NCBI RefSeq assembly: GCF_056712565.1
Contig: NZ_CM160072.1
DNA: 64,000 nt
Reading direction: 5' to 3' (one strand)
Shown one piece after another: positions 2,450 through 33,561 of the stretch. Both the position numbers and the translations under genes were made by a program. Position 1 is the first letter of the stretch. Every line of letters starts with the position of its first letter. The notes below the pieces were generated by a model. It was not told the DNA's origin, ran no database searches, and saw nothing but the letters and a program-made list of their open reading frames with translations.

Positions 2450-3577
2450 ATGTCGTGCCCGGTTATTGAGCTGACACAACAGCTTATTCGCCGCCCTTCC
2501 CTGAGTCCTGATGACGCAGGATGCCAGGCTTTGTTGATTGAACGTTTGCAGGCGATCGGTTTTACCGTTGAACGCATGGACTTTGCCGATACGCAGAATT
2601 TTTGGGCATGGCGTGGGCAGGGTGAAACGTTAGCCTTTGCCGGGCATACCGACGTGGTGCCGCCTGGCGACGCCGACCGTTGGATCAATCCGCCGTTTGA
2701 ACCAACCATTCGTGACGGCATGTTATTCGGGCGCGGTGCGGCAGATATGAAAGGCTCGCTGGCGGCGATGGTGGTAGCTGCAGAACGTTTTGTCGCACAA
2801 CATCCCAACCATACGGGGCGACTGGCATTTCTGATCACCTCTGATGAAGAAGCCAGTGCACACAATGGTACGGTAAAAGTCGTCGAAGCGTTAATGGCAC
2901 GTAATGAGCGTCTCGATTACTGCCTGGTTGGCGAACCGTCGAGTATCGAAGTGGTAGGTGATGTGGTGAAAAATGGTCGTCGCGGATCGTTAACCTGCAA
3001 CCTTACCATTCATGGCGTTCAGGGGCATGTTGCCTACCCACATCTGGCTGACAATCCGGTACATCGCGCAGCACCTTTCATTAATGAATTAGTGGCTATT
3101 GAGTGGGATCAGGGTAATGAATTCTTCCCGGCGACCAGTATGCAGATTGCCAATATTCAGGCGGGAACGGGCAGTAACAACGTTATTCCAGGTGAACTGT
3201 TTGTGCAGTTTAACTTCCGCTTTAGCACCGAACTGACGGATGAGATGATCAAAGCGCAGGTGCTTGCCCTGCTTGAAAAACATCAACTGCGCTATACGGT
3301 GGATTGGTGGCTTTCCGGGCAGCCATTTTTGACCGCGCGCGGTAAACTGGTGGATGCGGTCGTTAACGCGGTTGAGCACTATAATGAAATTAAACCGCAG
3401 CTACTGACCACAGGCGGAACGTCCGACGGGCGCTTTATTGCCCGCATGGGGGCGCAGGTGGTGGAACTCGGGCCGGTCAATGCCACGATTCATAAAATTA
3501 ATGAATGTGTGAACGCTGCCGACCTGCAGCTACTTGCCCGTATGTATCAACGTATCATGGAACAGCTCGTCGCCTGA
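2450..3577 (+). CDS. dapE: Succinyl-diaminopimelate desuccinylase
   Basis: 375-aa ORF, M20 peptidase family motifs, synteny. Confidence 0.95.
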
Positions 3578-3881: not shown

Positions 3882-4580
3882 TTACATCATTTCAATCACA
3901 TCATCATCGCCAGGCTTACCGCCACTTAGCGCTTCGTCGAAATAATGTTTCGGAATGGTATAACGCAAGTGATCCAGGGCTAATTGCATACTGCGATTGT
4001 CGATCGCATGGCCTAAATCCTCCACGATATCCAGCGTCACATCGCCACCGGCACTGATTAACGCTTCCTGCGCCGCAACCGCATGCGCCAGATCGATAAC
4101 CGGATCTTCACCGCCATGAATCAAGTGAATTGTTGTGGCTGTAGACGCGGTTTCCGGCAGGCTCGCGTAGCGTCCGTTGAAGGCAATGACGCGCGAAGCA
4201 AGGCCCGGTTCGGCTTTAATGCTCTCCAGCGCCATAATCGCGCCTTGTGAGAAACCGATTAGCGCCGTGGCATTAGCCCCTACTCCGCTTTGTTTCTGCC
4301 AGTAGCGCACCGTCTCAATAAACGTCGGCATGATGGCATTCACACGCGCCTGGCGATTATCTTCCGTAATACCCTGCACCGAAAACCACTGACGCCCCGC
4401 CGGATTACCGCTCGGCTCCGCGCCACCGACACTCACCACCAGCGCATCAGGAAACAGCGGCGCAAACCAGCTACCTATTTCCCCCATTGCCACCGGGTTA
4501 TCCCCGACACCGTGGAAAAGCAGTAACAACTGTTGTGCTGGTTTATCCGGGCTTTGAACAACAAAATGGTCATGTTTCAT
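3882..4580 (-). CDS. ypfH: Esterase YpfH (alpha/beta hydrolase)
   Basis: Start at ATG 4580 (MKHDHF...) with RBS AAGGAG 6 nt upstream; ORF track start 4604 is an extension. Confidence 0.85.
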   Translation of the reverse strand: MKHDHFVVQSPDKPAQQLLLLFHGVGDNPVAMGEIGSWFAPLFPDALVVSVGGAEPSGNPAGRQWFSVQGITEDNRQARVNAIMPTFIETVRYWQKQSGVGANATALIGFSQGAIMALESIKAEPGLASRVIAFNGRYASLPETASTATTIHLIHGGEDPVIDLAHAVAAQEALISAGGDVTLDIVEDLGHAIDNRSMQLALDHLRYTIPKHYFDEALSGGKPGDDDVIEMM

Positions 4581-26325: not shown

Positions 26326-26517
26326 GTGAGTCAGGCAACCAGTATGCGAAAACGACACCGATTTAACAGTCGCATGACCCGTATCGTACTGCTCATCAGC
26401 TTTATCTTCTTCTTTGGCCGTTTTATCTACTCGTCCGTCGGTGCCTGGCAGCACCATCAGAGCAAAAAAGAAGCTCAGCAATCCACACTCTCCGTCGAAT
26501 CACCGGTACAACGTTAG
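26326..26517 (+). CDS. yfgG: Small membrane protein YfgG
   Basis: 63 aa with one TM helix, synteny. Confidence 0.7.
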   Translation: MSQATSMRKRHRFNSRMTRIVLLISFIFFFGRFIYSSVGAWQHHQSKKEAQQSTLSVESPVQR

Positions 26518-26827
26518 CGGTTACCTTCTCCACTCTCACAGAACATAACGGCACCTCGCTGTCGGATGCTTTTGCTCTTTGAGATTATCAAAGCGGCAGA
26601 TATTCTTTCATCTTAAATTTTACGTCTTTGTTCTGACTGAAGTTCATCCTGTTCGGCTGCGAAATAAATACATCATTAATACATATGTTGTGATGATGTA
26701 TTTTTATAAATTATTTCCAGCATGAATTTTAATAAATTTAATCTATTCCTTTATACGCAATACATTTACTTTCCTCTTTTGATGATCTTAAATGTCTCAT
26801 TTTTCGTAATGTGTATAACAAGGAATA

Positions 26828-27346
26828 GTGATGAAATTTAAAAAATGTCTTCTGCCTGTGGCAATGTTAGCGTCATTCACTCTGGCAGGATGCCAGTCAA
26901 ATGCTGATGATCATGCCGCCGATGTTTATCAAACCGATCAACTGAATACCAAACAAGAAACTAAAACCGTTAATATTATTTCCATTCTTCCCGCAAAAGT
27001 TGCCGTAGACAACGCCCAAAATAAACGGAACGCACAAGCCTTCGGCGCGCTTATTGGCGCTGTCGCTGGCGGTGTTATCGGCCACAACGTCGGGTCTGGC
27101 AGCAATTCCGGAACGACGGCAGGTGCAGTTGGCGGCGGAGCTGTAGGCGCGGCAGCGGGTTCTATGGTGAATGATAAAACCTTAGTGGAAGGTGTTTCTT
27201 TAACATATAAGGAAGGCACCAAAGTGTATACCTCCACCCAGGTGGGTAAAGAGTGCCAGTTTACGACAGGTTTAGCCGTTGTTATTACCACGACGTATAA
27301 CGAAACGCGTATTCAGCCAAATACCAAATGTCCTGAAAAGAGCTAA
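26828..27346 (+). CDS. yfgH: Outer membrane lipoprotein YfgH (glycine-zipper)
   Basis: Lipobox LAGC; Gly-rich GxxxG repeats. Confidence 0.85.
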   Translation: MMKFKKCLLPVAMLASFTLAGCQSNADDHAADVYQTDQLNTKQETKTVNIISILPAKVAVDNAQNKRNAQAFGALIGAVAGGVIGHNVGSGSNSGTTAGAVGGGAVGAAAGSMVNDKTLVEGVSLTYKEGTKVYTSTQVGKECQFTTGLAVVITTTYNETRIQPNTKCPEKS

Positions 27347-27361
27347 TAATCAGGAGGAGTC

Positions 27362-27901
27362 ATGAAGAAAGTTTTTCTTTGCGCCATCTTAGCCTCCTTA
27401 AGCTATCCGGCTATCGCCTCATCATTGCAGGATCAACTCTCGGCTGTCGCAGAAGCGGAACAGCAAGGTAAAAATGAAGAGCAAAGGCAGCATGACGAAT
27501 GGGTCGCGGAGCGCAACAGGGAAATCCAGCAAGAGAAGCAACGTCGCGCAAACGCCCAGGCCGCGGCTAATAAAAGAGCGGCAACGGCAGCAGCGAATAA
27601 GAAAGCTCGTCAGGATAAACTGGACGCCGAAGCCACTGCGGACAAAAAACGCGATCAAAGTTATGAAGATGAGCTACGTAGCTTAGAGATTCAGAAACAA
27701 AAACTGGCGCTGGCGAAAGAAGAAGCCCGCGTCAAGCGCGAAAACGAATTTATCGATCAGGAACTGAAGCACAAAGCTGCGCAAACCGATGTGGTGCAAT
27801 CTGAAGCTGACGCAAACAGAAATATGACTGAAGGCGGTCGCGATCTGATGAAAAGCGTGGGTAAAGCAGAAGAGAATAAATCAGATAGCTGGTTTAACTA
27901 A
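27362..27901 (+). CDS. yfgI: Secreted coiled-coil protein YfgI
   Basis: 179 aa, signal peptide, charged coiled-coil. Confidence 0.85.
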   Translation: MKKVFLCAILASLSYPAIASSLQDQLSAVAEAEQQGKNEEQRQHDEWVAERNREIQQEKQRRANAQAAANKRAATAAANKKARQDKLDAEATADKKRDQSYEDELRSLEIQKQKLALAKEEARVKRENEFIDQELKHKAAQTDVVQSEADANRNMTEGGRDLMKSVGKAEENKSDSWFN

Positions 27902-27946
27902 ACGATGTTAGTAACTTCAAACCTATAATTCTTTAGGATAAAAAAA

Positions 27947-27973
27947 CCCTCTGTAGTAACAGAGGGTTTTGTT
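27947..27973. terminator. Bidirectional rho-independent terminator (yfgI / original guaA)
   Basis: A-run, CCCTCTG-tagtaa-CAGAGGG, TTTTGTT. Confidence 0.6.
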
Positions 27974-27994
27974 CATTCATAGTGCAGGGTCAAA

Positions 27995-28009
27995 TCATTC
28001 CCACTCAAT
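27995..28009 (-). other. Displaced guaA 3' end (codons IEWE-stop) = prophage attachment core at junction
   Basis: TCATTCCCACTCAAT reverse-translates to ...I-E-W-E-stop then diverges into phage DNA; 9-bp inverted repeat CACTCAATT/AATTGAGTG at 28002-28038. Confidence 0.55.
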
Positions 28010-28119: not shown

Positions 28120-28602
28120 CTATCTGGTCAAAGTGTCGTACTGTTTTTCGCAGACTCTTCCGGCTTCGGCTGCCCGGTCAGCATACTCTGCCAGTTGTCT
28201 GTTTCTCTCGAGAGATTTGCTGAGCACGTCGGCAAGCAAAACTCCGGTGTCTGCGGCTGACGACCCAGCGCCGACAATGGCGTTATACTGCCTGAGCTGC
28301 TCACGGATGGCAAAGAGTTGTTGCTGCAACCGGCCAGCGCTAGCGGCAGCATCAAGAGCATCATTGCGCGCCTGGTCGATCCTCTGCTGAGCTTCACGTT
28401 CATTGGTCACTTTCTCCTGTTCGTAGTACTGACGAACTTTGTCTTCTTCGGCTTTGCGGTCTTCTTCCGCCTGAGCATACCCGGCATCGTACTGGCGACT
28501 GCCGTGTATATTCCAGGCAACCACTCCTGATATGACCAGAACAGCAAGCACTGCCACGATAAGCAACTGTTTCCAGTATGCTTTCACGAATGCCTTGATC
28601 AT
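28120..28602 (-). CDS. Rz-like i-spanin
   Basis: N-terminal TM anchor then charged coiled-coil; last gene of lysis cassette. Confidence 0.6.
   Translation of the reverse strand: MIKAFVKAYWKQLLIVAVLAVLVISGVVAWNIHGSRQYDAGYAQAEEDRKAEEDKVRQYYEQEKVTNEREAQQRIDQARNDALDAAASAGRLQQQLFAIREQLRQYNAIVGAGSSAADTGVLLADVLSKSLERNRQLAEYADRAAEAGRVCEKQYDTLTR
28128..28364 (-). CDS. Rz1-like o-spanin lipoprotein, embedded in Rz in the +1 frame
   Basis: MMLLMLPLALAGCS lipobox; fully nested within Rz. Confidence 0.5.
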   Translation of the reverse strand: MMLLMLPLALAGCSNNSLPSVSSSGSITPLSALGRQPQTPEFCLPTCSANLSRETDNWQSMLTGQPKPEESAKNSTTL

Positions 28603-28823
28603 ATACTTACCTTCGGCTGAAATCGGCGAACGTTAATTGGCTCACCATATGGCCATGACCAATTCAGCCAGGTAAATGTTTTCAGCTCGCACATCGCATC
28701 GAAAAATTCACCAGGATCGATGTCGGAATAGCTGCAAACTATTTCCAGACCACGTTCTGTTTCTTGCAAAGCAACTGTATCTGTTTCCCAGCGGGGAATG
28801 AGCAAAGAAAATAGTTTATTCAT
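28599..28823 (-). CDS. Hypothetical 74-aa protein, translationally coupled to endolysin
   Basis: ATG 28823 overlaps endolysin stop; RBS AGAAGG; no TM. Confidence 0.4.
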
Positions 28824-29446
28824 AAAAGCACCTTCTTGGCCGAAAGATACCGTACACGCCGGTCGTCGATACCGTTTCTGCCACCATTGATAATCAGAGT
28901 TACACGTGCAATATCGCCGGTATACTTCATGCATCCTTTGCTGGCGAAGAACCACGCCGCGCTACGAGCCGCATATTCGTCCTGCGCCAGCAGTTCAGGG
29001 CTCTCCAGCAGGTCAACCTTCAGACCGTTTCCGCAATCACGATAGTTATTCAAACCGGTAATCTGGATAAGTCCGCGCCCTCGGTAATTCCAGCCATCAC
29101 CAGGGGCATTGTTCCCCATGCGTTTGCTGTATACCAGATTTGCGATCGCGCGCTGGCGCTCAAGTGGCAATGGTGGTTCACCAGCACGGCGCCCCAGTGC
29201 ATTAGCCTGCCCCTGAGTGAGACGCCCAGCCCGAACGAAGTTAGCCAGTCCGCTGACACTGTAGTTGAAATTCTCCTGCAACCTGGTGAAGCCCCCAGAC
29301 TCATGCCCGACTTGAGCAATAAACATTGCCTGATCTTCTGCTTTGCTGATACCAAACTCTTTCATCGCAGAAGTTATATGCGAGAACCAGCGTGCGGCCA
29401 GTGCCTCGCTGATACCAGCAGCTCGCTGGAATTGTTTAATCTCCAT
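28820..29446 (-). CDS. Endolysin, glycoside hydrolase family 19-like
   Basis: [12 protein letters not shown]...[12 protein letters not shown] chitinase-class motifs; start ATG 29446 with RBS GAGGT; track extension to 29611 rejected. Confidence 0.75.
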
Positions 29447-29744
29447 GTTTAGACCTCGATACTTTAAAAATTTGAACGACGTTACCGCGCGTTTTAATAA
29501 CCGCAGCCAGCATGACAGCGTTGATAATGACCTCAGATAAATCCACAGCCATTGGCGTACGTAACCAGATTGCATAGGCGACTCGAACAGGAATACTGGC
29601 CGCAGCAACAATCAGGAAATAAGCAAGCCATCCTCCCCACCTTCGATGTTGAGAGCCGTTACGCCGGAATGTGACAACGCGAATTGCTATGCCAGTGCAA
29701 ATAACTGCATTGGTGATAAGCAAAAAAAACTCATGCGTTACCAT
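29436..29744 (-). CDS. Lysis-cassette membrane protein (holin or antiholin candidate)
   Basis: 102 aa, about 3 TM segments, overlaps endolysin start. Confidence 0.5.
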
Positions 29745-30135
29745 CGTCTTTTCTCCCCGGAATTAACTCGCGTGGATTATCGGAACGGTGATAGAGCCAT
29801 ATACCAATACGCACAGCGACAATTGCTGACACGAATGCGCCTGCAGAGAAAACAATCCCTTTTTCAAAAGAGTCCTGCGTGATGGTAGGGATCAGGCTGG
29901 CTATGCCGATAAGAATTGATGCTGCTGGTTTGTAAAAGAGAAGGCCACAAAGAAAGCTGAGCATCGAAAGGAGCACCCGGCGACGGATGGGGTACTCTAC
30001 TGCAGAGGTAACAAAAATTACCGCCCCAGCCAAAGCCCCTAAAGCAACCTCCGGAGGGACACCTGCAATAACCGCAGCAAGAGAACTAAAACTAAGCAAC
30101 TGATTTAATTGCTCACTTGTTACTTGAGCAGACAT
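29731..30135 (-). CDS. Holin-like membrane protein
   Basis: 134 aa, about 4 TM segments, charged C-terminus, first gene of lysis cassette. Confidence 0.5.
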   Translation of the reverse strand: MSAQVTSEQLNQLLSFSSLAAVIAGVPPEVALGALAGAVIFVTSAVEYPIRRRVLLSMLSFLCGLLFYKPAASILIGIASLIPTITQDSFEKGIVFSAGAFVSAIVAVRIGIWLYHRSDNPRELIPGRKDDGNA

Positions 30136-30416: not shown

Positions 30417-30445
30417 CCCGCAAAATATTGCGGGCTTTTTTTTAA
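30417..30445 (+). terminator. Plus-strand rho-independent terminator abutting tailspike stop
   Basis: CCCGCAAAATATTGCGGG followed by CTTTTTTTTT. Confidence 0.4.
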
Positions 30446-33400
30446 CGTTCTTCCAGAGACTGAATCCGCTCTTTTATCTTATCCATTTCTCTGCGCTGCC
30501 ATGCTGCCTCGATATAGAATAAGAGATCAGGTCTGACCCCCCATCTAGATCCTGCTGGCGTTATTTCAACGCGCTCAATGATGTCTTCTATTACCATCAC
30601 TGGATTATCATCCTCATCAACAATGATGCTCCCGTCATTATCAGTCAGCGGCATTTCCCTTTGGCCAGTAATGACGTCATCATATACTGCGGGATAATCG
30701 TCATAGCAAAGAAAGGCATAGCGGCATGTTGTGCTTTCTTCTTCCATGAGTCCGTGAGAAATAAGAACATCACGAAGTTGCTGCGCGATTACACCATGAT
30801 GTATCCTCGCCCCTTCTTCCCCCTTTATAGCGACAGCGTTCAGCCATTTATAAGCGATATACCTGACGTCACCCCAGGCATCCAGCAATGCTTCGTCAGG
30901 AGAGACCGGCTCTGTCTTTAATGTTCCGTCACTGGTAACCACAGGATTGGAGCCAAGATAAACTGTCGAGAACCTGTTTCCCGGACCACCAAGAGCATTT
31001 ACATTATCAAGATAAGGTTTAACATCTCCGTTCTCAAAAAGATGTTCGAGTGCGTTATATACCGCGCGACGTGGAGTACTGCTTCCGGAACCATGCAACG
31101 TTATCATTGCACCATCTGCTGAAGACGTTGTTTCACCTCCGCTAACGATTAATCTCTGAGCGGTAACATCATCAGACGGTACTTTCTTCGCAATAATGGC
31201 GTAATTACCCTCAAGTTTGACTTCCGCGCGAACTTGTCCTGATGTACCTGCATGGACAGTCAGTGACTGGACGGCAACATCATCTGTGAAATCAACGGGT
31301 ACAGGAACCGTCCTCACGCCTGACGTCGACATAAAAGTAGGAAGCGTTCTGTTAGGAGTGGCTCCGTAGACAAAATCCCTTGAAACAAATTCTTCCTGTT
31401 TAATTTTCACCCTGAAACAATACAAATCAGCCGGGTGACCATCGTGAACATAAGGATATTTTCTGTTGTTATCCCCTATGCTCCATGGGTTTAGAAAGTC
31501 TTCCCCACCGAAAATGTAGTACAGCCAGTTGTCTTTGATACAAACTGAACCAACACCAACCGCAGAGTTAACTATTCCGCCCTGATAAATCTGATCAGTA
31601 ACATTAACCCACTCTACATTATCCAGACTCCACTCATTGACGTTAACTCTGGTCATAAATGTTCTTGGATAATTTCCTGCATAACGGTTATCAGGTTCTC
31701 CTCCTTCCCACTCACCAAATGCGCGCTCACTGCCAAAAATAATCAGCTCATCGCCAACTTTGGCAAAAGGAAGGTTTGAGTGATGAACATTATTTGGGAA
31801 GCGAAGAGAATTCCATGATGTACCTAAATCAGAGCTTCTGTGCAATGAACTACCGGGTTGAGTACTTAATGTCCCCCTGGTCGTCAGATACAGAATGCCA
31901 TCATAATATTTTACACATGGCTCAGATGCATTCGCCTCATATTCTGCAGGTATGCGTCTGCGAACAAAGCTACCAGGAGAACCGAAAGCATCAGAGAAAT
32001 AGAGTATCCCAAGCTCGCGTGGACCAATATCACCATTATGGTAGCCAACAGCAAAACTGTTATCGCTAATCGTCGCAAAACTGTGAATCTCAGTAACAGG
32101 AGTGCTTCCGTCAACAAAAGAAGGAATAGTTCCAAGACTGGTTTTTCTCCATGGTGACGAGTGAAATGATGTACCAAAACTCCAGTATCTACCCTCGTTA
32201 TTCTGATCCACATCCTGAGTATTTTGCGTCGTAACTGTAAAAGTATTTTTATCAATAACAGTAGTCACCGTCATATTCCCGGTAACACCTGTAACACCAG
32301 AGTTTGAGAAGTTGACAAAATCACCAGCAAATAATCCGTGATCAGTAATGCGAATATAAGCGACTTGCTGATTTGCTGCTTTCGTTATACCACCATAAAC
32401 GCGAAGGCTGCGACTCATTGGGCGATCCCACAACTCTGCAACCTGCAGTTTATTTCCTCTCACGGTCCGCGTCTCAATTACAGCAAAAAGGCGATTTCTG
32501 ACAACCCCCATACTCATGCAGTGATAGTTAACTGTGGGATAGTTTTCATGTAAATCTGTAAGCCATTCCGGCGTTGTCCAGGTCTTCCCGTCATCTCCTG
32601 AGCGAACCCATGCAACATGGAGGTTATTTACACCATGGCGGTCTCCAGCCATAAAAGGCGCATAGATGACATTGTCATATACAAACGTTTTATCCTGCGT
32701 CCAGGCGTTGTACCACGGTGTATCTGTAATTTTAAATAACTCTCCCTGGATAAAATCTTCAGAAGCATAAAAAAGAGGCTGGCCCGGTATTCTCTCAAAT
32801 AAAAAACGAGCATTTTTAAATCGACTGACATCCGGAAGAGTTGATACTTTAAAAGTAAGCCCTAATCCGTCAATTTTATAACCTGGAGATGAGGCTTCAA
32901 GGCACGCGCTTATTGCAGTGGAATCGTCATTTATACCATCACCAACAGCTCCAAAATCTTTGGGGCTAATAGCATCACGCATTTTATCCTGGAACGTTCG
33001 GTACACAGCCCCAGAACCATACTGAATAAACCAACCAAAACCACCAACAACCCCGGCGATTGCAGCATCGACATAATTACGCATTGAGCGATTATTTACA
33101 GCGTCCTGCTCAAATGATGGATCTGCAAGGTTAGAAATTTTGTTTTGCTTTGCATCGTAATATTTTGCAAGCAAAGATGGTTTCATCAATGCACGTCTGA
33201 ACCACCCAAAACATTGCTGGATCAGCATCGTCAGGTAGTCAAAGGCATCTTCATGCACTTCGGGGAAAAATTTTCCCTGATTGCGAAGGTCTGTCTCCTG
33301 CACTACATCAAGCACACGATCTATCGTAATTCGCCATCCAGTAGCAAGCGGAGACGGAAGAACCACAGAACCGCCACTATAAGTGCCCGCCCCAGTTACC

Positions 33401-33561
33401 GTATAACCGGTATCCAGGACCAATTCTGTTACGTTCCCGTTCAGGTCAGACACCTGAACAACCAGGTCTGATTTTCTGAAAATTCGAAAAGTATACGGAA
33501 ACGATGTCGTAACGCCGTTACCGGTGTATTCGTTGTGGTCAACTTCGGTTGAGACCGTCAT
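30442..33561 (-). CDS. Tailspike protein with Asp-box (BNR) beta-propeller-type central domain
   Basis: 1039 aa; conserved phage tail-fibre N-terminal domain; two SxDxGxTW motifs (SGDDGKTW, SSDLGTSW); RBS GGAG. Confidence 0.8.
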   Translation of the reverse strand: MTVSTEVDHNEYTGNGVTTSFPYTFRIFRKSDLVVQVSDLNGNVTELVLDTGYTVTGAGTYSGGSVVLPSPLATGWRITIDRVLDVVQETDLRNQGKFFPEVHEDAFDYLTMLIQQCFGWFRRALMKPSLLAKYYDAKQNKISNLADPSFEQDAVNNRSMRNYVDAAIAGVVGGFGWFIQYGSGAVYRTFQDKMRDAISPKDFGAVGDGINDDSTAISACLEASSPGYKIDGLGLTFKVSTLPDVSRFKNARFLFERIPGQPLFYASEDFIQGELFKITDTPWYNAWTQDKTFVYDNVIYAPFMAGDRHGVNNLHVAWVRSGDDGKTWTTPEWLTDLHENYPTVNYHCMSMGVVRNRLFAVIETRTVRGNKLQVAELWDRPMSRSLRVYGGITKAANQQVAYIRITDHGLFAGDFVNFSNSGVTGVTGNMTVTTVIDKNTFTVTTQNTQDVDQNNEGRYWSFGTSFHSSPWRKTSLGTIPSFVDGSTPVTEIHSFATISDNSFAVGYHNGDIGPRELGILYFSDAFGSPGSFVRRRIPAEYEANASEPCVKYYDGILYLTTRGTLSTQPGSSLHRSSDLGTSWNSLRFPNNVHHSNLPFAKVGDELIIFGSERAFGEWEGGEPDNRYAGNYPRTFMTRVNVNEWSLDNVEWVNVTDQIYQGGIVNSAVGVGSVCIKDNWLYYIFGGEDFLNPWSIGDNNRKYPYVHDGHPADLYCFRVKIKQEEFVSRDFVYGATPNRTLPTFMSTSGVRTVPVPVDFTDDVAVQSLTVHAGTSGQVRAEVKLEGNYAIIAKKVPSDDVTAQRLIVSGGETTSSADGAMITLHGSGSSTPRRAVYNALEHLFENGDVKPYLDNVNALGGPGNRFSTVYLGSNPVVTSDGTLKTEPVSPDEALLDAWGDVRYIAYKWLNAVAIKGEEGARIHHGVIAQQLRDVLISHGLMEEESTTCRYAFLCYDDYPAVYDDVITGQREMPLTDNDGSIIVDEDDNPVMVIEDIIERVEITPAGSRWGVRPDLLFYIEAAWQRREMDKIKERIQSLEER

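Follow-up and report, generated by a model that had tools for sequence, protein, structure and literature searches.

The lysis cassettes of the Uetakevirus phages phiV10, epsilon15, SPN1S, TL-2011b, ZX5, and Tyrion are of a well-described type in which the stop codon of the endolysin gene meets the start codon of the spanin gene Rz. Here we examine a cassette of this type at positions 28,120–30,135 of a 64,000-nucleotide stretch of DNA (NCBI RefSeq assembly GCF_056712565.1, contig NZ_CM160072.1), which we refer to in its entirety as the window. The six phages have the same five genes as the window, in the same order and with the same overlaps, at 79–99% DNA identity, and their cassettes likewise stand at a prophage end beside the attachment (att) core at guaA. 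The sole structural departure in the window is a 225-bp insert between the endolysin gene and Rz, a gene on the minus strand (28599–28823) for a protein of 74 amino acids (aa). The cassette itself is ordinary and nothing in it is new; our subject is the inserted gene. By sequence comparison it recombines as a module of its own and belongs to a large phage protein family, PHROG 2241, and we give about even odds (∼0.5) that its product is a context-independent accessory protein directed at a host or defense target, not a dedicated partner of the endolysin.

A few described systems offer partial parallels. In the lambdoid cassette of Pseudomonas phage MD8, an unassigned gene lies between the genes for the endolysin and the inner spanin, the latter with a nested outer spanin gene (PMC8508860). 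The 74-aa gene resembles it in position, the only feature on which the two were compared. T1-like phages encode a standalone SH3 protein (DUF7244), small, beta-rich, and not universal, an accessory whose gene is found with the lysis module of Gram-negative phages and which has been proposed as an auxiliary lysis component (PMC13164509). Its gene lies upstream of the holin gene and is confined to the lysis locus, whereas PHROG 2241 occurs in many contexts; the 74-aa protein has no sequence match to DUF7244, nor to any Pfam family. Another small protein, T4 RIII, is a soluble cytoplasmic antiholin cofactor that modulates lysis timing via the holin, and it is not known to be encoded within a holin–endolysin–spanin operon. 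Its likeness to the 74-aa protein is one of size, solubility, and predicted cytoplasmic location. Searches of Pfam, NCBIfam, and PDB sequences matched the 74-aa protein to none of the soluble lysis regulators and chaperones T4 RIII, P1 LydB, and Ms6 Gp1, in libraries that may not hold all three and with no direct comparison made.

Results

The Inserted Gene and Its Junctions

By BLAST, the DNA of the cassette region matches Escherichia phage vB_EcoP_ZX5 at 99% identity and phiV10, TL-2011b, and other Uetakevirus relatives at 89–95%, in each case apart from one gap, and the matches to cultured relatives all split in two at the 74-aa insert. ZX5, phiV10, and Tyrion have no gene in between; there the stop codon of the endolysin gene directly overlaps the start of Rz. 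Aligned to this junction, the window has the 225-bp gene added and a unit consisting of a Shine–Dalgarno sequence and ATGA on both flanks, that is, in duplicate; moreover, the last ∼40 nt of the endolysin gene differ from phiV10-type versions. These differences indicate that the gene was acquired by recombination with another cassette.

The ATG of the 74-aa gene overlaps the endolysin TGA and its own TGA overlaps the Rz ATG, each as ATGA, and a GAAGGTG Shine–Dalgarno sequence lies upstream. A preliminary description of this region, made from the letters alone, had reported the overlap with the endolysin stop, and the ATGA confirms this overlap, which would couple the two genes in translation. 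The same description gave the protein no transmembrane (TM) segment or signal peptide, which also holds: its maximum 19-residue hydropathy is 0.36, and its isoelectric point (pI) is 4.6. We considered an N-terminal signal peptide and rejected it, the hydrophobic core (LFSLLI) being just 6 residues long.

The gene bears a clear mark of purifying selection. Relative to the Salmonella copy, the proportion of nonsynonymous differences (pN) is 0.07 and that of synonymous differences (pS) 0.68, for a ratio of nonsynonymous to synonymous rates (dN/dS) of ∼0.04; with the copies from Enterobacter and Cronobacter, the comparison gives saturation at synonymous sites and a pN of only 0.17–0.25. The 16 clusters formed at 90% identity from Salmonella, Cronobacter, and Enterobacter share 70–90% identity, and all but one of them (15/16) are exactly 74 aa long. 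An AlphaFold2 (AF2) model of the protein, an N-terminal helix followed by four beta strands, has a predicted local distance difference test score (pLDDT) of 90.3. Judged by these features of the sequence, the open reading frame (ORF) is a real gene and not a chance one. A homing or selfish element was also considered and rejected, with no nuclease present and strong purifying selection on the protein.

Rarity and Independent Movement of the Gene

Within Escherichia coli the gene is rare. The endolysin–Rz region was matched in ∼530 of 5,426 complete genomes, in only 7 of which the match covered the insert. Searched alone, the 74-aa gene was found in 8 genomes, namely 7 at 100% DNA identity and strain ML35 at 81%. 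The gene is thus missing from approximately 98% of the E. coli genomes that have a cassette of this type, and the window version is absent from all cultured phages in the collection searched.

Where the gene does occur, it is conserved out of step with its surroundings. Two other cassettes (L007 and L023) share the 225 bp with the window at 100% and 99.6% identity, while the endolysin DNA is 93% and 72% identical, the Rz DNA 55% and 84%, and the flanking genes 55–94%. The same 74-aa protein is paired with GH19 (glycoside hydrolase family 19) endolysins at 78–100% identity and with Rz proteins at 52–100%. This pattern is that of a recent horizontal sweep of gene size, whose breakpoints fall on the start and stop codons of the gene itself. 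By the same comparisons, the 74-aa gene recombines independently of both neighbors, as its own module.

Close Relatives and Their Neighbors

In all 46 IMG/VR loci that encode a protein of at least 58% identity, the gene lies between the endolysin and inner-membrane spanin (i-spanin) genes with the same 4-bp overlaps, and the same position and overlaps were found in the Salmonella, Cronobacter, and Enterobacter prophages examined. The locus search patterns were drawn from this enteric clade, so the sampling is partly biased toward it; our tallies of context cover ∼20 lineages. The endolysin beside these close relatives is GH19 in 43 of the 46 loci. In three loci of the enteric clade (L050, L056, and L067), it is instead a GH108 enzyme with a PG_binding_3 domain. 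The adjoining i-spanins are of several types as well: DUF2514, PF03245, and a 92-aa protein with an overlapping LysC-like lipoprotein. The phage backbones range from Uetakevirus-like to lambdoid, the latter with HNH-terminase genes and one for a Q antiterminator. Across the family as a whole, the neighbors in lysis cassettes include three confirmed endolysin classes (GH19, GH108, and GH24) and three i-spanin types.

The PHROG 2241 Family

The preliminary description called the 74-aa protein an orphan, a label that proved wrong. Residues 1–73 match phrog_2241 (E 2.6e-25), a family whose function is not assigned. A profile search of 1.84 billion representative proteins, with E up to 0.001, recovered 219 clusters at 50% identity, most of whose members are standalone proteins of 65–95 aa, and a tblastn search with a Pseudomonas-type member found the family in 294 phage records. 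The inspected records among those 294 are Ackermannviridae, with the gene directly after the topoisomerase II genes; copies lie at 3956–4243 in both L092 (Dickeya phage LIMEstone1) and L093 (Salmonella phage P46FS4). The LIMEstone1 copy is annotated as a membrane protein because of a hydrophobic N-terminal extension. Searches of Pfam, NCBIfam, PADLOC, and PDB sequences gave no match for the 74-aa protein, and 104 relatives were also searched in Pfam without one; as PADLOC models defense systems, its silence says little about anti-defense. Our literature search turned up neither a mention of the family by its PHROG number nor any work on the lysis cassettes of Uetakevirus.

The family has recognizable features of its own. 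LPPA36 WNO25015, ZC03_074, LIMEstone1 ORF016, and a Vibrio gene between terS and terL have in common with the window copy the motif L-I-P-R-F/W-x-T-E/D-x-V-A-L, a conserved Cys, and a P-G-E-x-F-D loop; they are of similar size and, like the window copy, are typically joined to their neighbors by ATGA. Unlike the window copy, they lie in early, DNA-metabolism, or terminase regions, and some are fused to a Lar Zn-ribbon or extended at the N-terminus by a hydrophobic stretch. What sets the enteric clade apart is a Trp-rich C-terminal half, found outside the clade only in P0019.

A few members are fusions in which the family domain is N-terminal and is followed by a Lar restriction-alleviation Zn-ribbon or by other domains without assignment. 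Such fusions include L004 3001–3546 (Pseudomonas phage LPPA36), P0029, P0055, and P0061, with the Lar Zn-ribbon or CxxC pairs after the family domain, and P0027 and P0029 have a further C-terminal helix module in common. One protein, P0155 (387 aa), consists of approximately six tandem copies of a 60-aa unit, five stretches of which match the family profile; it is probably a repeat or assembly oddity.

Context of Distant Relatives

More than half of the sampled family lineages lie outside lysis cassettes. P0019 (49% identity) comes after DnaB in a nin-like region and has a DNA methylase 2.5 kb away. P0022 and P0045 lie between N6_N4 methylases and a PP-binding protein, and P0045 and P0058 directly adjoin Tad2-like (anti-Thoeris) genes, in opposite orders. 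In this setting, two members of different 50% clusters (L097 3–619 and L099 753–1282) are joined by ATGA to Tad2-like genes, with the Tad2-like gene upstream in one and downstream in the other. The Lar fusion of LPPA36 stands two genes from a DNA methyltransferase, P0036 is near ThyX, and P0033, P0065, and the ZC03 member belong to arrays of small early genes. Several members adjoin terminase genes. Near terminase-adjacent members in the GC-rich loci L075, L084, and L087, upstream ORF calls looked spurious and were discarded. The window copy, for its part, lies inside a lysis operon and not among anti-defense genes.

Other distant relatives do sit in lysis cassettes. In L069/L072 (45% identity), the gene lies between a GH24 lysozyme gene and a DUF2514 Rz with embedded Rz1; it is absent at exactly that junction from the related Pseudomonas phages Persinger and PPpW-3. 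In L094 (P0030), it lies ahead of a DUF2514 Rz. The endolysin position of that locus, between two membrane proteins and the family member, is held by a 163-aa protein (2513–3004) with no Pfam match, which may be an unclassified type of endolysin. In L070/L071, the gene comes after one for a Peptidase_M15_4 protein, and membrane proteins then follow; from its family and those membrane proteins, the peptidase is taken to be the endolysin. In L074, the gene lies between those of a membrane protein and a GH24 lysozyme of the signal-anchor-release (SAR) type.

In a neighbor-joining tree of the family built on 78 columns, the enteric lysis clade is monophyletic (100% bootstrap), and its sister is P0019 of the nin-like region (98%). 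The other members from lysis cassettes are placed elsewhere in the tree, away from the enteric clade. P0019 already has the enteric clade's Trp-rich C-terminal motif. Taken together, the tree and this motif suggest that the position next to an endolysin gene arose several times, and that in the enteric clade it did so without a lysis-specific change in sequence.

The Surrounding Lysis Cassette

The cassette comprises six genes on the minus strand, from 30135 to 28120, all joined by overlaps. The preliminary description gave their order as two membrane proteins, a GH19 endolysin, the 74-aa protein, and Rz with Rz1, an order that the coordinates and the Pfam and PHROG matches bear out. The first membrane protein (134 aa; 29731–30135, minus strand) belongs to Phage_holin_8 (PF16931, E 9e-12, 45.6 bits against a cut-off of 26.4; phrog_198 "holin," E 7e-41), and an AGGAG Shine–Dalgarno sequence precedes its gene. 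The second (102 aa; 29436–29744, minus strand) belongs to Phage_holin_3_7, a family of holins with three TM segments (PF05449, E 5e-27, 94.2 bits against a cut-off of 25.4; phrog_217 "holin," E 1.5e-35). The two genes overlap by 14 nt. On the topology of these proteins, a point raised in the preliminary description, we found approximately three hydrophobic segments in the first (residues ∼18–50, 54–83, and 90–115) and three in the second (5–26, 38–61, and 64–84). The Phage_holin_8 protein may act as either holin or antiholin.

The endolysin (208 aa; 28820–29446, minus strand) is of the SPN1S GH19 type (PF00182, 36.3 bits against a cut-off of 25.5; phrog_181, E 2.5e-90). Its residues 1–207 align to the solved SPN1S endolysin (PDB 4OK7) at ∼85% identity (E 5e-116). 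It has a pI of 9.8, a maximum 19-residue hydropathy of 0.57, and no hydrophobic segment, SAR sequence, or signal sequence. The lack of a hydrophobic segment indicates a soluble enzyme, which would depend on a holin. Residues E49 and E58, which we take to be catalytic, are invariant in 18 orthologues.

The i-spanin Rz (160 aa; 28120–28602, minus strand) matches DUF2514 (PF10721, E 5e-44; phrog_312, E 7e-59) and has an N-terminal TM domain at residues 4–35. The outer-membrane spanin (o-spanin) Rz1 (91 aa; 28128–28403, minus strand; phrog_11621, E 1.6e-40) is encoded in the +1 frame wholly within Rz, its start offset by 199 nt from that of Rz. It has its own AGGAG Shine–Dalgarno sequence and a signal peptide with the lipobox LAGC (Cys26), and its length and position are those of phiV10p30a. 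The pair thus shows all the traits of a two-component embedded spanin: a TM domain in the i-spanin, a lipobox in the o-spanin, and +1 nesting. The spanins of phiV10, epsilon15, and SPN1S have been placed in the embedded "Bcep176" family (Kongari et al., PMC6139136), to which those of the window cassette also belong.

The Prophage and Its Host Flank

The lysis operon ends at an intrinsic terminator (27943–27970, minus strand) with a 12-bp stem, a 4-nt loop, and a T-run, which also faces yfgI on the plus strand; phiV10 has an annotated terminator at the matching place. The att core of 17 bp, aatcattcccactcaat (the reverse complement of attgagtgggaatgatt), marks the boundary between prophage and host at 27993–28009, 23 bp from the terminator. 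Published work on phiV10, epsilon15, and ZX5 places this core sequence at the 3′ end of guaA (PMC9782041). To the left of the prophage, at 26326–27901 on the plus strand, lie ordinary E. coli core genes: a yfgG-like gene (63 aa), yfgH (a glycine-zipper lipoprotein of 172 aa), and yfgI (DUF5384, 179 aa). The upstream neighbor of the lysis cassette is a tailspike gene (30442–33561, minus strand) for a K1 endosialidase of 1039 aa with the full set of domains, namely End_N_terminal, beta-propeller, beta-barrel, End_tail_spike, and a Peptidase_S74 chaperone. Only 306 bp of intergenic DNA, in which several sites resemble promoters, separate the tailspike gene from the lysis genes, and, unlike in phiV10, no O-acetyltransferase (oac) gene stands between them.

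Given the att core, the host genes to the left, and the K1 endosialidase tailspike next to it, we assign the cassette from its sequence to the right end of a phiV10/epsilon15-type (Uetakevirus) prophage integrated at the guaA att site of a K1 strain of E. coli. In E. coli GPEC1337 (NZ_CM142779.1), the chromosome matches the region at 100% identity, and a second place in it also matches the endolysin/74-aa/Rz region, which suggests a second related prophage on the same chromosome.

Discussion

Our results incline us to view the 74-aa gene as cargo of the lysis operon and not as one of its working parts. In the cassette proper, as known for these protein families, the two holin-family membrane proteins would time the permeabilization of the membrane, the soluble GH19 endolysin would then reach and cut the cell wall, and the Rz/Rz1 spanin pair would break the outer membrane. 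The 74-aa gene, which is optional and horizontally mobile and has been spliced into the endolysin/Rz junction, would stand outside this core machinery. Since a Shine–Dalgarno sequence and an ATGA overlap are kept on both sides of it, the protein would be a late, cytoplasmic product, expressed alongside the lysis proteins. The lysis operon would then serve mainly as a permissive, well-expressed landing site. More generally, the Shine–Dalgarno/ATGA junctions of tightly packed operons may be landing sites for a mobile accessory gene of this kind. By analogy, the company that the family keeps elsewhere (Tad2-like genes, Lar, orphan methylases, and nin-type regions) is that of counter-defense and host-interaction genes. 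With a probability of about one half, we favor the view that the 74-aa protein functions as an accessory irrespective of its context and is directed at a host or defense target. What the comparisons show is the anatomy of the cassette, the reality of the gene, its optional and mobile nature, and how broad its family is and in which settings it occurs; when and where the protein is made, and what it does, are inferred.

Several observations weigh against this view. Late coexpression with lysis genes is odd timing for a counter-defense protein, and the links to anti-defense rest on relatives of less than ∼40% identity, which makes them guilt by association. The predicted model of the 74-aa protein has no structural relative in the PDB, with neither an SH3-type match nor a known anti-defense fold. 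The family is adjacent to an endolysin gene in at least three to four separate lineages (the enteric clade, L069/L072/L094, L070/L071, and L074/L077/L081), more often than uniform placement would give (rough binomial P ∼ 0.005, on the assumption of ∼2/55 junctions per genome). This adjacency may reflect a real function in lysis. The start of a late operon also tends to collect accessory genes, however, and the excess cannot be separated here from that tendency. Finally, the 74-aa protein may bind the endolysin. An AF2 run on the endolysin, a (GGGGS)x6 linker, and the 74-aa protein as one chain, with a shallow alignment of 18 paired sequences, was uninformative (mean pLDDT 59, predicted template modeling score 0.50, and pLDDT 30–46 over the 74-aa part).

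It is useful to set the favored reading beside the explanations that keep the protein within the lysis pathway. The strongest of these, which we hold tentatively as the chief competitor, is that the small 74-aa protein does take part in lysis, as an accessory factor in the cytoplasm that tunes its timing or efficiency. Such a factor might bind a cytoplasmic domain of a holin, as T4 RIII does, keep the endolysin from acting, or cross the holin lesion along with the endolysin to work on the wall in trans. The strict conservation of position and of 4-bp overlaps in the 46 IMG/VR loci and the examined prophages is what one would expect of it, as is the presence of separate family lineages within lysis cassettes. 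The protein is also acidic where the endolysin is basic, the enteric clade has a Trp-rich hairpin, and the spread of one identical, gene-sized piece of DNA among diverged cassettes suggests that it is useful there. However, ∼98% of the equivalent cassettes do without the gene, its partners come from unrelated endolysin and spanin families, and it is not coinherited with either neighbor. The closest relative beyond the clade, from a nin region, shares its C-terminal motif, so that the clade has no lysis-specific change in sequence, and most sampled family lineages lie in early or accessory regions. A broader form of the idea, which we consider slightly more doubtful still, makes PHROG 2241 as a whole an unrecognized lysis accessory of Gram-negative phages, independent of endolysin class. 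Its members would be small cytoplasmic beta proteins, new in fold, whose genes were taken up time and again between those for endolysin and spanin and which adjust when or how holin, endolysin, and spanin fire.

A narrower proposal, already raised in the preliminary description as an endolysin partner, is that the protein serves the GH19 endolysin specifically, as its chaperone, inhibitor, or activator. The gene is indeed directly downstream of, and translationally coupled to, a GH19 gene in 43 of the 46 close loci, and the two proteins are of opposite charge. Nevertheless, members of the same clade follow a GH108 endolysin in L050, L056, and L067, in homologues the preceding gene encodes a GH24 endolysin or an M15-type peptidase, an identical 74-aa protein goes with GH19 variants just 78% identical, and no gene of this kind accompanies the endolysins of SPN1S, phiV10, and ZX5. 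Because the enzyme partners are unrelated, coinheritance is lacking, and nearly all equivalent cassettes do without the gene, we regard this proposal as improbable; the independent recombination of the gene and the placement of more than half of the lineages elsewhere further weaken the case for a dedicated partnership. Least probable is that the ORF goes untranslated or lacks a function, as a spacer or as a remnant brought in by recombination. It is indeed short, its region is mosaic, and its translation is predicted from sequence; however, a dN/dS of ∼0.04 with synonymous saturation, a constant length of 74 codons across genera, a good Shine–Dalgarno sequence, a deep family, and a confidently predicted fold (pLDDT 90) all speak for a working protein, and the signal of selection effectively excludes this explanation.

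Under the favored reading, in which the gene is mobile cargo with a host or defense target, as under its competitors, the 74-aa gene is an entry point to a sizeable and uncharacterized family that is conserved across the Ackermannviridae and has no Pfam model. ZX5, with 99% identity in the flanks and no 74-aa gene, is a natural isogenic comparator. Modest follow-up is worthwhile because this comparator exists and the family is large and unstudied. If an effect on lysis were true, the gene would represent a new accessory lysis function; if an effect on defense were true, it would be a new anti-defense candidate beside Tad2, Lar, and the orphan methylases.

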